The notes under the pieces: model-generated
What the model was told of the DNA's origin: nothing
Databases searched by the model: none
What the model saw: only the letters and a program-made list of their open reading frames with translations
From: Escherichia coli
GTDB taxonomy: Bacteria > Pseudomonadota > Gammaproteobacteria > Enterobacterales > Enterobacteriaceae
DNA: 64,000 bases
Assembly (NCBI RefSeq): GCF_044324785.1
Contig: NZ_CP172127.1
Direction: 5' to 3' (one strand)
Shown: piece after piece, positions 45,454-47,260 of the stretch
Layout of the letters: each line of letters opens with the position of its first letter
How positions within the stretch are numbered: the first letter of the stretch is position 1
Position numbers and translations under genes: made by a program

Positions 45454-45867
45454 GTGTTCATTATGTCAGCCCATCTAACTACTGATTCTTTAAATCAATG
45501 GCTTAGTGTGAGCTCTCTTGCTGCAGTTATCGTAGGCGTTCCGCCAGAGGTGGCGCTCGGTGCTCTTGCTGGTGCGGTAATTTTTGTTACCTCTGCGGTA
45601 GAGTACCCAATTCATCGTCGCGTACTCTTATCGATGCTTAGCTTTCTCTGTGGACTTCTTTTCTACAAACCAGCAGCATCAATTCTTATCGGCATAGCCA
45701 GCCTGATCCCTACCATCACGCAGGACTCTTTTGAAAAAGGGATTGTTTTCTCTGCTGGCGCATTCGTGTCAGCAATTGTCGCTGTGCGTATTGGTATATG
45801 GCTCTACCACCGTTCAGACAATCCACGCGATTTAATTCCGGGGAGAAAAGACGATGGTAACGCATGA
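45454..45867 (+). CDS. integral membrane protein (possible holin or antiholin)
   Basis: 137 aa; multiple hydrophobic helices; overlaps the next membrane protein gene. Confidence 0.4.
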   Translation: MFIMSAHLTTDSLNQWLSVSSLAAVIVGVPPEVALGALAGAVIFVTSAVEYPIHRRVLLSMLSFLCGLLFYKPAASILIGIASLIPTITQDSFEKGIVFSAGAFVSAIVAVRIGIWLYHRSDNPRDLIPGRKDDGNA

Positions 45868-46162
45868 GTTTTTTTTGCTTATCACCAATGCAGTTATTTG
45901 TACTGGCATAGCAATTCGCGTTGTCACATTCCGGCGTAACGGCTCTCAACATCGAAGATGGGGAGGGTGGCTTGCTTATTTCCTTATTGTTGCTGCGGCC
46001 AGTATTCCTGTTCGTGTCGTCTATGCAATCTGGTTACGCACGCCAATGGCTGTGGATTTATCTGAGGTCATTATCAACGCTGTCATGCTTGCCGCGGTTA
46101 TTAAAACACGCGGTAACGTTGTTCAGATTTTCAAAATATCGAGGTCTAAACATGGAGATTAA
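45854..46162 (+). CDS. holin candidate
   Basis: 102 aa; 2-3 TM helices with a charged C-terminus; immediately upstream of the endolysin. Confidence 0.5.
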
Positions 46163-46781
46163 ACAATTCCAGCGAGCTGCTGGTATTAGCGAGGCGCTGG
46201 CCGCACGCTGGTTCTCGCATATAACTTCTGCGATGAAAGAGTTTGGTATCAGCAAAGCAGAAGATCAGGCAATGTTTATTGCTCAAGTCGGGCATGAGTC
46301 TGGGGGCTTCACCAGGTTGCAGGAGAATTTCAACTACAGTGTCAGCGGACTGGCTAACTTCGTTCGGGCTGGGCGTCTCACTCAGGGGCAGGCTAATGCA
46401 CTGGGTCGCCATGCTGGTGAACCACCATTGCCACTCGAGCGCCAGCGAGCGATTGCCAATCTGGTGTACAGCAAACGCATGGGGAACAATGCCCCCGGCG
46501 ATGGCTGGAATTACCGTGGCCGCGGACTTATCCAGATTACCGGTTTGAATAACTATCGTGATTGCGGAAACGGCCTGAAAGTGGACCTGCTGGAGAATCC
46601 TGAACTGTTGGCGCAGGACGAATACGCGGCTCGTAGCGCGGCGTGGTTCTTCTCCAGCAAAGGTTGCATGAAGTATACCGGCGATATTGCACGTGTAACT
46701 CTGATTATCAATGGTGGCAGGAATGGCATCGACGACCGGCGCGCGCGGTACGTCACTGCCAGTAAGGTGCTGGCGGTATGA
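46152..46781 (+). CDS. endolysin, glycoside hydrolase family 19-like
   Basis: Start at [21 protein letters not shown]...; [10 protein letters not shown] motif typical of GH19 phage endolysins; 209 aa. Confidence 0.75.
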
Positions 46782-47260
46782 TCTGGGCATTCGTAAAAGC
46801 ATACTGGAAACAGTTGATTATCGTGGCAGTGCTTGCTGTTCTGGTCATATCAGGAGTTGTTGCCTGGAATGTACACGGTATCCGTCAGTACGACGCCGGG
46901 TATGCGCAGGCGAAAGAAGACTGCAAAGCCGAAGAAGAAAAAGTTCGTCAGTACTACGAACAGGAGAAAGTGACCAATGAACGTGAAGCTCAGCAGAGGA
47001 TCGACCAGGCGCGCAATGATGCTCTTGATGCTGCCGCTAGCGCTGGCCGGTTGCAGCAACAACTCTTTGCCATCCGTGAGCAGCTCAGGCAGTATAACGC
47101 CATTGTCGGCGCTGGGTCGTCAGCCGCAGACACCGGAGTTTTGCTTGCCGACGTGCTCAGCAAATCTCTCGAGAGAAACAGACAACTGGCAGAGTATGCT
47201 GACCGGGCAGCCGAAGCCGGAAGAGTCTGCGAAAAACAGTACGACACTTTGACCAGATAG
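46778..47260 (+). CDS. i-spanin (Rz-like)
   Basis: 160 aa; N-terminal TM helix then coiled coil; ATGA overlap with the endolysin stop. Confidence 0.7.
47016..47252 (+). CDS. o-spanin (Rz1-like lipoprotein) embedded in the +1 frame of Rz
   Basis: [16 protein letters not shown] lipobox; Pro/Ser-rich mature part. Confidence 0.6.
   Translation: MMLLMLPLALAGCSNNSLPSVSSSGSITPLSALGRQPQTPEFCLPTCSANLSRETDNWQSMLTGQPKPEESAKNSTTL

Follow-up and report, generated by a model that had tools for sequence, protein, structure and literature searches.

An intact holin-endolysin-spanin cassette of the epsilon15/phiV10 type at the attR end of a guaA prophage in Escherichia coli

In the 64,000-nucleotide stretch of Escherichia coli DNA analysed here (the window), positions 45463-47260 very probably represent the intact five-gene lysis cassette of an epsilon15/phiV10-type (Uetakevirus) prophage, a degree of confidence that concerns the identity of the cassette and not the assignment of holin and antiholin. 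The cassette is a canonical holin-endolysin-spanin module, ordinary and already described, with annotations in phiV10, epsilon15 and SPN1S as well as in several hundred genomes of E. coli. Two overlapping membrane-protein genes, here called memA and memB, are followed by a GH19 endolysin and an embedded pair of spanins, and all the features listed when a lysis cassette was originally predicted are present in the sequence. The five products match PHROGs lysis families with E-values of 1e-35 to 1e-91 and the first three genes have a dN/dS of 0.05-0.12 (compared with phiV10 and epsilon15), which together argues that the features of the cassette are not due to chance. None of the five proteins is covered by an NCBIfam model.

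Results

The cassette adjoins attR of a Uetakevirus prophage

The host prophage, of approximately 40.7 kb, is a Uetakevirus inserted in the 3' end of guaA. Alignment of attL and attR with the attP regions of phiV10 and epsilon15 delimits a 17-bp core, ATTGAGTGGGAATGATT, that is found at both prophage ends. The attL copy lies at the guaA stop; the attR copy (47371-47387, no strand assigned) is phage-borne and repeats the last guaA codons. The integrase ORF (6831-8081) adjoins attL, completing the arrangement of a Uetakevirus prophage at guaA, and the same 17-bp core has been determined experimentally for vB_EcoP_ZX5 (PMC9782041). Between the Rz stop codon and the attR core lie 110 nt, confirming the expected position of the cassette next to attR. 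In phiV10 and epsilon15 the cassette is followed closely by attP and int, and therefore it ends at attR beside guaA in the lysogen. The host's original guaA terminator, a hairpin with a 12-bp stem and a T run detected by terminator scan at 47410-47437 (+ strand), now also closes the lysis operon, while a phage-origin copy of this terminator (27 nt, 93% identical) is located at attL (6685-6711).

The original prediction also placed the cassette in a remnant formed by deletion between direct repeats of ant. The two 257-nt copies are found at 8114-8370 and 41020-41276, and because both lie to the left of the cassette, it would stay in such a remnant. The geometry thus holds, but the remnant itself is hypothetical: none of the 5,426 complete E. 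coli genomes contains the predicted junction as a contiguous sequence.

End to end, the cassette is 82-98% identical at the nucleotide level to those of phiV10, epsilon15, SPN1S, TL-2011b, ZX5 and other Uetakeviruses. The five genes recur in unchanged order as p27-p30a of phiV10 and gp23-gp26 plus Rz1 of epsilon15, with identical lengths (405, 309, 630, 483 and 276 nt) and the same 14-nt first overlap; relative to these two phages the nucleotide identity is 82-90% overall, and the endolysin and Rz are 84-96% and 86-90% identical in amino acids, respectively. The differences from phiV10 and epsilon15 lie outside the cassette, in a different tailspike allele and in the absence of O-antigen-modifying genes between tailspike and cassette, where phiV10 has oac and epsilon15 has gp21/gp22. 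The cassette adjoins yfgI/yfgH in 530 of the 5,426 complete E. coli genomes (approximately 10%).

The endolysin is a soluble GH19 enzyme

The third gene (46152-46781, + strand) encodes a 209-residue protein, predicted to be a soluble cytoplasmic peptidoglycan hydrolase of the N-acetylmuramidase type. As anticipated from a GH19-like motif, which is indeed present, the protein belongs to GH19: in a domain search PF00182 scored 38.5 bits, above its cut-off of 25.5, and the protein matches the SPN1S endolysin structure 4OK7 over residues 1-208 (E=6e-116) and the structure 9EOI of PaGH19Lys (3e-31). Glu49 and Glu58 align with the catalytic pair E51 and E60 of PaGH19Lys, in which the E60Q variant has lost activity (PMC12329726). 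The catalytic region ...LQENFNYS with both glutamates, the solubility and the lack of an export signal are shared with the SPN1S endolysin, epsilon15 LysSA05 and PaGH19Lys, from which this allele differs by scattered substitutions only. Peptidoglycan-hydrolysing activity has been demonstrated in the literature for these three homologues and is predicted for this allele.

The absence of a signal anchor was also correctly foreseen, as no 19-residue window reaches a Kyte-Doolittle value of 1.2 and the N-terminus is charged. A signal-anchored (SAR) endolysin was accordingly rejected for want of a hydrophobic N-terminal segment, and the enzyme would therefore be cytoplasmic and holin-dependent. A published prediction of a 'transmembrane helix 39-54' for the epsilon15 enzyme falls on the region that forms the catalytic site in the soluble crystal structure. 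A 286-residue frame opening with TTG (45921-46781) is an artefact of the ORF finder, and the endolysin gene itself begins with the ATG at 46152.

The spanins are nested

Joined to the endolysin gene by an ATGA overlap, the fourth gene (46778-47260, + strand) encodes a 160-residue i-spanin of the Rz type (DUF2514, 2e-42; PHROG 312 'Rz-like spanin', 8e-59) with an N-terminal transmembrane helix at approximately residues 14-32 (Kyte-Doolittle 2.65), a periplasmic helical domain, and cysteines at positions 49 and 151. The 91-residue Rz1-type o-spanin, an outer-membrane lipoprotein (46977-47252, + strand; PHROG 11621, 1.6e-40), is encoded wholly inside Rz in the +1 frame with an offset of 199 nt, precisely as had been proposed, and spans 0.41-0.98 of the Rz length, as is typical of embedded spanins. 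Its lipobox is LAG|C, yielding a mature form of 66 residues from Cys26 with Ser rather than Asp at +2, with 7 prolines among the 66 residues and with Cys56 and Cys60 present. A transmembrane helix and periplasmic domain in one protein and a lipobox in the product of the nested gene define an embedded two-component spanin, in agreement with the assignment of the epsilon15 and phiV10 spanins to the embedded two-component 'Bcep176' family (Kongari et al. 2018, PMC6139136). The architecture, i.e. an i-spanin with an N-terminal transmembrane helix, a nested +1 o-spanin and periplasmic cysteines in both, is shared with lambda Rz/Rz1 and the Bcep176 family. However, no sequence similarity to lambda Rz/Rz1 themselves could be detected, and the Rz described here belongs to Pfam DUF2514 and not to the lambda Rz family.

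Two membrane proteins precede the endolysin

The first gene, memA, encodes a multi-pass inner-membrane protein of 134 residues (45463-45867, + strand), homologous to epsilon15 gp23 and phiV10 p27 and 90% identical to both. Its reading frame is open from a GTG at 45454 to 45867, and the ATG at 45463, giving 405 nt, is the more likely start as it is used by PGAP and in the phiV10 and epsilon15 records; the left edge of 45454 given originally is thus 9 nt too far to the left. Although the two starts share a reading frame, the residues added by the GTG start are uncharged (Met-Phe-Ile here; Met-Val-Ile in phiV10; Met-Val-Thr in epsilon15), and a lambda-like dual start was therefore rejected. The protein is a member of PF16931 (Phage_holin_8; 5e-12, 46.5 bits against a cut-off of 26.4) and matches PHROG 198 'holin' (2e-40), with a dN/dS of 0.06-0.08. 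It contains three hydrophobic blocks, and an AlphaFold2 model of moderate confidence (pLDDT 67.5) places helices at residues 7-24, 28-44, 50-66, 68-79 and 89-119, compatible with three to five transmembrane helices.

The second gene, memB (45854-46162, + strand), encodes a 102-residue protein of PF05449 (Phage_holin_3_7, formerly DUF754; 2.2e-27) that matches PHROG 217 'holin' (2e-35) and is 82% identical in amino acids to its phiV10 and epsilon15 counterparts. The helices predicted by AlphaFold2 (residues 2-25, 35-61 and 69-84, followed by a short C-terminal helix; pLDDT 75.6) would be arranged N-out/C-in, a topology that fits the charges of the loop (+4) and of the basic C-terminal tail (+3). 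Small size, three helices, a basic loop and tail, and a position beside the endolysin gene together make up the layout of a class I holin. Two multi-spanning proteins overlapping by 14 nt before the endolysin, as originally described, are borne out in the sequence: memA and memB share exactly 14 nt (ATGGTAACGCATGA), as they do in phiV10 and epsilon15, and memB in turn overlaps the endolysin gene by 11 nt.

Sequence upstream of the cassette

Directly after the tailspike stop (45233), a hairpin followed by a U-rich tract (45254-45299, + strand; fold energy -19.5 kcal/mol, z=-3.3 against shuffles) is a probable intrinsic terminator that was not flagged by a simple terminator scan. The lysis cassette hence probably sits behind a terminator, and no sigma-70-like promoter was found upstream of it on the + strand; both observations count against the explanation preferred here. 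The only strong Shine-Dalgarno sequence of the region (AAGGAG, 45428-45433) serves a mini-ORF of 12 codons read from the sequence, MRNKRCSLCQPI followed by a stop (45440-45478, + strand), which extends, in a different frame, across the start of the first lysis gene. The Shine-Dalgarno sequence and the ATG are kept in both phiV10 and epsilon15, together with a short ORF (6 codons in the former, 12 in the latter), and it is possible that the mini-ORF functions as a translational-coupling leader.

The PF16931 and PF05449 genes form a fixed pair

In all 11 phages chosen via memB (HK639, phi_D3, RSA1, FSL SP-058, yong2, MA12, Pylas, ENT39118, Seifer, Mana and EcP1), a PF16931 gene lies immediately upstream of the PF05449 gene, overlapping or abutting it by 1-17 nt, and the same pairing is observed for five of five distant memA homologues (25-37% identity). 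The 16 contexts are a small sample, picked by hand from phage records and partly our own choice, yet they span podo-, sipho-, myo- and N4-like phages of Enterobacterales, Pseudomonas, Ralstonia and Burkholderia. Downstream of the pair the endolysin varies among GH19, M15_4, GH108, lysozyme and PG_binding_1-type hydrolases, so that a fixed gene pair is combined with a freely swapped endolysin. The PF05449 gene of the pair is often missed by gene callers. Both memA and memB are under strong purifying selection, and no homology between them is detectable (hhalign probability 2.3%); they are thus not redundant paralogues, and an origin as paralogues was rejected.

The Burkholderia P2-like phages KS5, KS14, KL3 and Mana and the Klebsiella phages Pylas and Seifer have the same succession of PF16931/IPR032637 and PF05449/IPR008473 genes, abutting and just upstream of the endolysin, with both proteins annotated as having three transmembrane domains in N-out/C-in orientation. 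These phages differ in their endolysins (PG_binding_1-type, lysozyme) and spanin layouts, and the roles attached to their pair proteins are predicted.

Discussion

We propose that the cassette operates by the following course, in which the membrane topology, the order of events and the roles of the membrane proteins are inferred from the paradigm pathway. After induction, the five overlapping genes would be translated as one coupled unit, and the GH19 muramidase would build up, folded, in the cytoplasm. In the inner membrane memB, with three transmembrane helices in N-out/C-in orientation, would accumulate, and its timed triggering would open large holes through which the enzyme reaches the peptidoglycan. 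The outer membrane would then be destroyed by the two spanins, Rz and the lipoprotein Rz1, which presumably already bridge the periplasm. As the obligate, co-translated partner of memB, memA most likely would bind it within the membrane.

The original prediction left a choice between a holin/antiholin pair and a holin accompanied by an unrelated membrane factor; comparative data and other annotators favour the former, and the pairing in 16 of 16 contexts disfavours the latter. In the assignment that we tentatively place first, with nearly even confidence, memB is the holin and memA its timing regulator (antiholin). Antiholins share no defining sequence signature, and the strict adjacency to PF05449 genes in the 16 contexts is contextual evidence for this role. 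The searchable literature yielded no experiment on the PF16931/PF05449 pair and no experimental report of hole formation for any PF05449 member. Annotators disagree over which protein is the holin, and the holin and antiholin labels of KS5, Pylas, Seifer and Mana are predictions. The concept of a second membrane protein that modulates holin triggering is shared with P2 Y/LysA and lambda S105/S107. In contrast, neither has sequence similarity to memA or memB, lysA of P2 follows the endolysin gene and encodes a protein with 4 transmembrane domains, and the lambda dual start has no equivalent here.

A reversal of these roles, with memA as the hole-forming holin and memB as the antiholin or regulator, is rather unlikely by our estimate. 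Pfam and PHROGs call both families 'holin', and the NCBI name for memA is 'putative holin'; moreover, memA is the more conserved of the two within Uetakeviruses and combines a holin-like GxxxGA motif, invariant in the family alignment, with a charged C-terminal tail. In the alp cluster of P. aeruginosa, the first gene, alpB, is called the holin and alpC the anti-holin, both labels being putative, and AlpB or Hol is required for Lys-dependent explosive lysis. However, searches did not establish that AlpB and AlpC belong to PF16931 and PF05449: the top list of a profile search held enterobacterial near-relatives alone, no core-genome-sized P. aeruginosa cluster was among the matches to phi_D3 protein queries, and a cluster look-up of distant memA homologues gave betaproteobacteria alone (Paludibacterium, Gulbenkiania, Craterilacuibacter and Chitinolyticbacter). 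Against the reversal, memB is also the most widely recognisable of the two (229 phage records against 37 for memA by tblastn), lies directly beside the endolysin gene with the classical small, three-helix class I layout, and is the protein whose family is named as the holin by the KS5 paper and the Pylas record.

We give a similarly low probability to memA being a required co-subunit of the hole, and the same holds for the corresponding obligate two-component (heteromeric) holin, in which neither protein alone would make holes. The strict pairing across morphotypes and hosts supports such an arrangement, since some lineages should have lost a timing regulator if it were dispensable, and no loss is seen in the 16 contexts. 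In addition, the overlap or abutment of the two genes in every context points to a fixed stoichiometry, and the two families lack detectable homology. This is weighed down by the size of the sample and its partly author-chosen composition, and by the fact that dedicated antiholins can be stably kept as well, as in T4 (RI) and lambda (the S107 dual start). A more far-reaching version, less probable again, is that PF16931 and PF05449 proteins constitute an obligate heteromeric holin, portable across morphotypes with interchangeable endolysins and with neither partner a mere regulator, and that the Uetakevirus mini-ORF sets the expression ratio of the two.

That memA is an unrelated membrane factor, e.g. 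for superinfection exclusion or lysogenic conversion, merely located beside a holin gene, is highly improbable. Older epsilon15 and phiV10 records say just 'membrane protein' for its counterpart, which follows the serotype-conversion genes in these phages, but the strict pairing with swapped endolysins argues against this reading, as memA accompanies PF05449 genes across unrelated types of phage, overlaps the start of the holin gene with its stop, and is kept in this prophage though the conversion genes are absent. Equally improbable is a decaying, non-functional prophage remnant: the cassette is chromosomal and prophage lysis genes are often inactivated, but here all five ORFs are full length and match the free phages phiV10 and epsilon15 in size, the catalytic residues are intact, the first three genes show the low dN/dS given above, and a lysogen of the closely related vB_EcoP_ZX5 spontaneously releases 10^7 PFU/mL (PMC9782041).

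In conclusion, the discovery value of this textbook module, with an endolysin of known crystal structure, is small. For E. coli, the cassette can serve as a marker of the right-hand boundary of a guaA prophage that is probably inducible and is carried by about 10% of the complete genomes. The PF16931-PF05449 pair is a fixed unit that is of interest to a phage-lysis laboratory, a modest finding rather than a surprise.

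The lysis cassette and its products

Based on the ORF map and the raw sequence, the lysis cassette consists of five co-oriented, overlapping genes on the plus strand. The first membrane-protein gene, memA, opens at GTG 45454, where the original prediction had placed its start; the otherwise sound layout is best amended here, as ATG 45463 is the probable start (45463-45867, 405 nt, 134 aa) and the one used in the RefSeq/PGAP annotation of the near-identical strain E57 and in the phiV10 and epsilon15 records. The second membrane-protein gene, memB (45854-46162, 102 aa), overlaps memA by exactly the predicted 14 nt (45854-45867), followed by the endolysin gene (46152-46781, 209 aa, 11-nt overlap with memB) and the i-spanin gene Rz (46778-47260, 160 aa, ATGA overlap with the endolysin gene). 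The gene for the o-spanin lipoprotein, Rz1 (46977-47252, 91 aa), is offset from the Rz start by 199 nt, which puts it in the +1 frame, and terminates short of the Rz stop codon; it is wholly embedded, as had been noticed, and covers 0.41-0.98 of the Rz length, a placement typical of embedded spanins.

Family matches for all five products confirm the assignment as a lysis cassette: memA to PF16931 Phage_holin_8 (5e-12) and PHROG 198 'holin' (2e-40), memB to PF05449 Phage_holin_3_7 (2e-27) and PHROG 217 'holin' (2e-35), the endolysin to PHROG 181 'endolysin' (1e-91), Rz to DUF2514 (2e-42) and PHROG 312 'Rz-like spanin' (8e-59), and Rz1, with no Pfam match, to PHROG 11621 'Rz-like spanin' (2e-40). 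By megablast, the whole 2.1-kb cassette is present in 26 phage records, with identities of 98% to Phi05_1387 B, 92-96% to several E. coli Uetakeviruses, 90% to phiV10 and 82% to epsilon15 and SPN1S, and all five genes have exactly the same lengths in phiV10 and epsilon15. The cassette is intact and of the ordinary Uetakevirus kind, one that has been annotated, and in part characterised, elsewhere.

The predicted GH19 type of the endolysin is supported by the domain search (PF00182, above cut-off) and by a full-length match to the SPN1S endolysin crystal structure 4OK7 (E=6e-116). A further match is PaGH19Lys (9EOI, 3e-31), shown to be an N-acetylmuramidase (PMC12329726), whose catalytic E51 and E60 align with Glu49 and Glu58. 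No 19-residue window of the endolysin reaches a Kyte-Doolittle mean of 1.2 or more; the protein thus lacks a signal peptide or SAR anchor, in agreement with the original prediction, and must stay cytoplasmic until the holin acts. Rz has a single strong N-terminal transmembrane segment (residues 14-32, Kyte-Doolittle 2.65) and two cysteines, at positions 49 and 151. The Rz1 lipobox, LAG|C26, carries Ser at +2, implying outer-membrane sorting; among the 66 residues of the mature protein are 7 prolines and two more cysteines. The epsilon15, phiV10, SPN1S and TL-2011b spanins have been grouped in the 'Bcep176' family of a spanin census (PMC6139136).

Prophage context and regulation

The window is E. 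coli chromosome, with guaB, guaA and an integrase ORF at 3457-8081 and yfgI, yfgH, yfgG, pdeF and ppx downstream of the cassette. Aligning the left and right ends of the prophage to the phiV10 and epsilon15 attP regions yields the common core ATTGAGTGGGAATGATT, which covers the guaA stop codon at the left end, attL. An identical 17-bp core has been published for vB_EcoP_ZX5 (PMC9782041). The element is therefore an epsilon15/phiV10-like prophage of ~40.7 kb with the lysis cassette as its last operon before the right end, attR, whose core (47371-47387) lies 110 nt past the Rz stop, consistent with the expected proximity. In the free phages phiV10 and epsilon15 the cassette precedes attP and int, a matching position. 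Among 5,426 complete E. coli genomes, 530 have both the cassette and yfgI/yfgH (at least 80% coverage of a 4-kb query). The prophage also contains a tRNA-Arg(TCT) gene (23032-23108, minus strand). Outside it, an IS5-type transposase ORF (DDE_Tnp_1 and DUF772, 49370-50362) separates the yfgG region from pdeF; strain E57, 99.6% identical in other respects, lacks this insertion.

The cassette had also been predicted to persist in a remnant left by deletion between ant direct repeats. The repeat (257 nt, 95% identical, 8114-8370 and 41020-41276, 32.9 kb apart) makes up the 3' ends that an AntA/AntB antirepressor gene and a Bro-N gene have in common. With both copies to the left of the cassette, recombination would preserve int, a single hybrid ant gene, the tailspike gene and the lysis cassette, so the logic stands; however, the surveyed genomes lend it no support, as a constructed junction was found contiguously (at least 80% coverage) in none of the 5,426, whereas 563 have its halves apart.

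Upstream, the tailspike-cassette interval (45234-45462) is a 229-nt spacer only, whereas phiV10 carries oac and epsilon15 gp21/gp22 here, i.e. the present prophage is without O-antigen-modifying (serotype-conversion) genes. The tailspike stop is followed by a terminator-like hairpin with a U-rich tail (45254-45299, -19.5 kcal/mol, z=-3.3), and a plus-strand scan found no sigma-70-like promoter. Just one Shine-Dalgarno site is strong (AAGGAG, 45428-45433), and it serves not memA but a plus-strand mini-ORF of 12 codons (ATG 45440 to TAA 45476-45478, MRNKRCSLCQPI), which overlaps the memA ATG in another frame. This layout is conserved: the epsilon15 counterpart also has 12 codons, and that of phiV10 has 6, its stop abutting the memA ATG. 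Judged from this arrangement, the mini-ORF may be a leader that couples or throttles (attenuates) memA translation. Downstream, a near copy of the guaA terminator hairpin (27 nt, 93% identity) is carried in the phage attP region and lies at 6685-6711, at attL. Hence guaA keeps a terminator there, one contributed by the phage, and the original host hairpin (47410-47437; stretch matching the phage copy, 47412-47438) closes the lysis operon at attR.

A paired holin module

Both membrane-protein genes are real and under strong purifying selection, as indicated by low dN/dS (0.06-0.08 for memA, 0.10-0.12 for memB, at dS 0.7-1.0). In a small sample of 11 phages chosen through their memB homologue, a PF16931 gene lies immediately upstream in all 11 (8e-16 to 1e-34), namely in lambdoid HK639, Pseudomonas phi_D3, the P2-like Ralstonia RSA1 and Burkholderia Mana, the N4-like Salmonella FSL SP-058, Klebsiella Pylas and Enterobacter EcP1, the Casjensviridae Pectobacterium MA12 and Klebsiella Seifer, Cronobacter ENT39118, and Hafnia yong2. 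Conversely, directly behind distant memA homologues (25-37% identity) lies, in 5/5 contexts, a PF05449 gene or a PF05449-like ORF that had not been called. The two genes overlap or abut by 1-17 nt in every sampled context, while the endolysin that follows varies (GH19, Peptidase_M15_4, GH108 with PG_binding_3, COG3772 lysozyme or a PG_binding_1-type hydrolase). The PF16931-PF05449 pair is a co-inherited module, probably translationally coupled. In phi_D3 (1077-1758 of the sampled locus) it is followed by small hypothetical genes and no recognisable endolysin gene, i.e. the pair is separable from its endolysin.

The small overlapping PF05449 gene is a recurrent annotation gap: in several phage records and metagenome gene calls it is unannotated or truncated, yet visible by tblastn or ORF map (in locus coordinates, MA12 1281-1581, ENT39118 1296-1564, EcP1 1277-1567, L006 1056-1331 and L008 3378-3668).

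By tblastn, close memA homologues occur only in 37 phage records, compared to 229 from many genera for memB, and phmmer, run exhaustively against 1.84 billion cluster representatives, returned only 56 memA relatives. Since the pair is found in distant phages, this narrow distribution reflects faster divergence of memA. The two families show no detectable homology to each other (hhalign probability 2.3%).

Division of roles

We read memB as the putative hole-former and memA as its intramembrane partner, most likely a timing regulator. The memB AlphaFold model (pLDDT 75.6) has membrane-length helices at 2-25, 35-61 and 69-84 and a short C-terminal helix, and the charges of its loop (+4) and tail (+3) would fit the N-out/C-in layout of a class I holin. 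memA comprises three hydrophobic blocks, two interrupted by Pro (PPE, KP), and a charged tail; its model, of lower confidence (pLDDT 67.5), places helices at 7-24, 28-44, 50-66, 68-79 and 89-119. In KS5, KS14 and KL3, Lynch et al. designated the upstream gene a 'putative antiholin' and took the DUF754 gene to be the 'holin' (PMC3091744), and the Pylas record gives an 'antiholin paired with adjacent holin', both with three transmembrane domains, N-out/C-in. P. aeruginosa alpB/alpC, described as a prophage-derived pair of putative holin and anti-holin (PMC7969949), is a candidate parallel worth following as a lead; there, Lys-dependent explosive lysis needs either AlpB or Hol (PMC8131026).

A live alternative to a timing regulator is that memA acts as an obligate co-holin, and its retention in 16/16 contexts leans somewhat toward such an essential role. 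Reversed roles of memA and memB are a live alternative as well. The Seifer record labels both proteins 'holin-antiholin' and the Mana record both 'holin'. Our literature search found no experiments on any member. The original prediction had left a choice between a holin/antiholin pair and a holin plus an unrelated membrane factor, the latter being ruled out for practical purposes by the pairing in all 16 sampled contexts. The added value is modest: in a small sample, PF16931 and PF05449 genes constantly occur together as a two-gene holin module.
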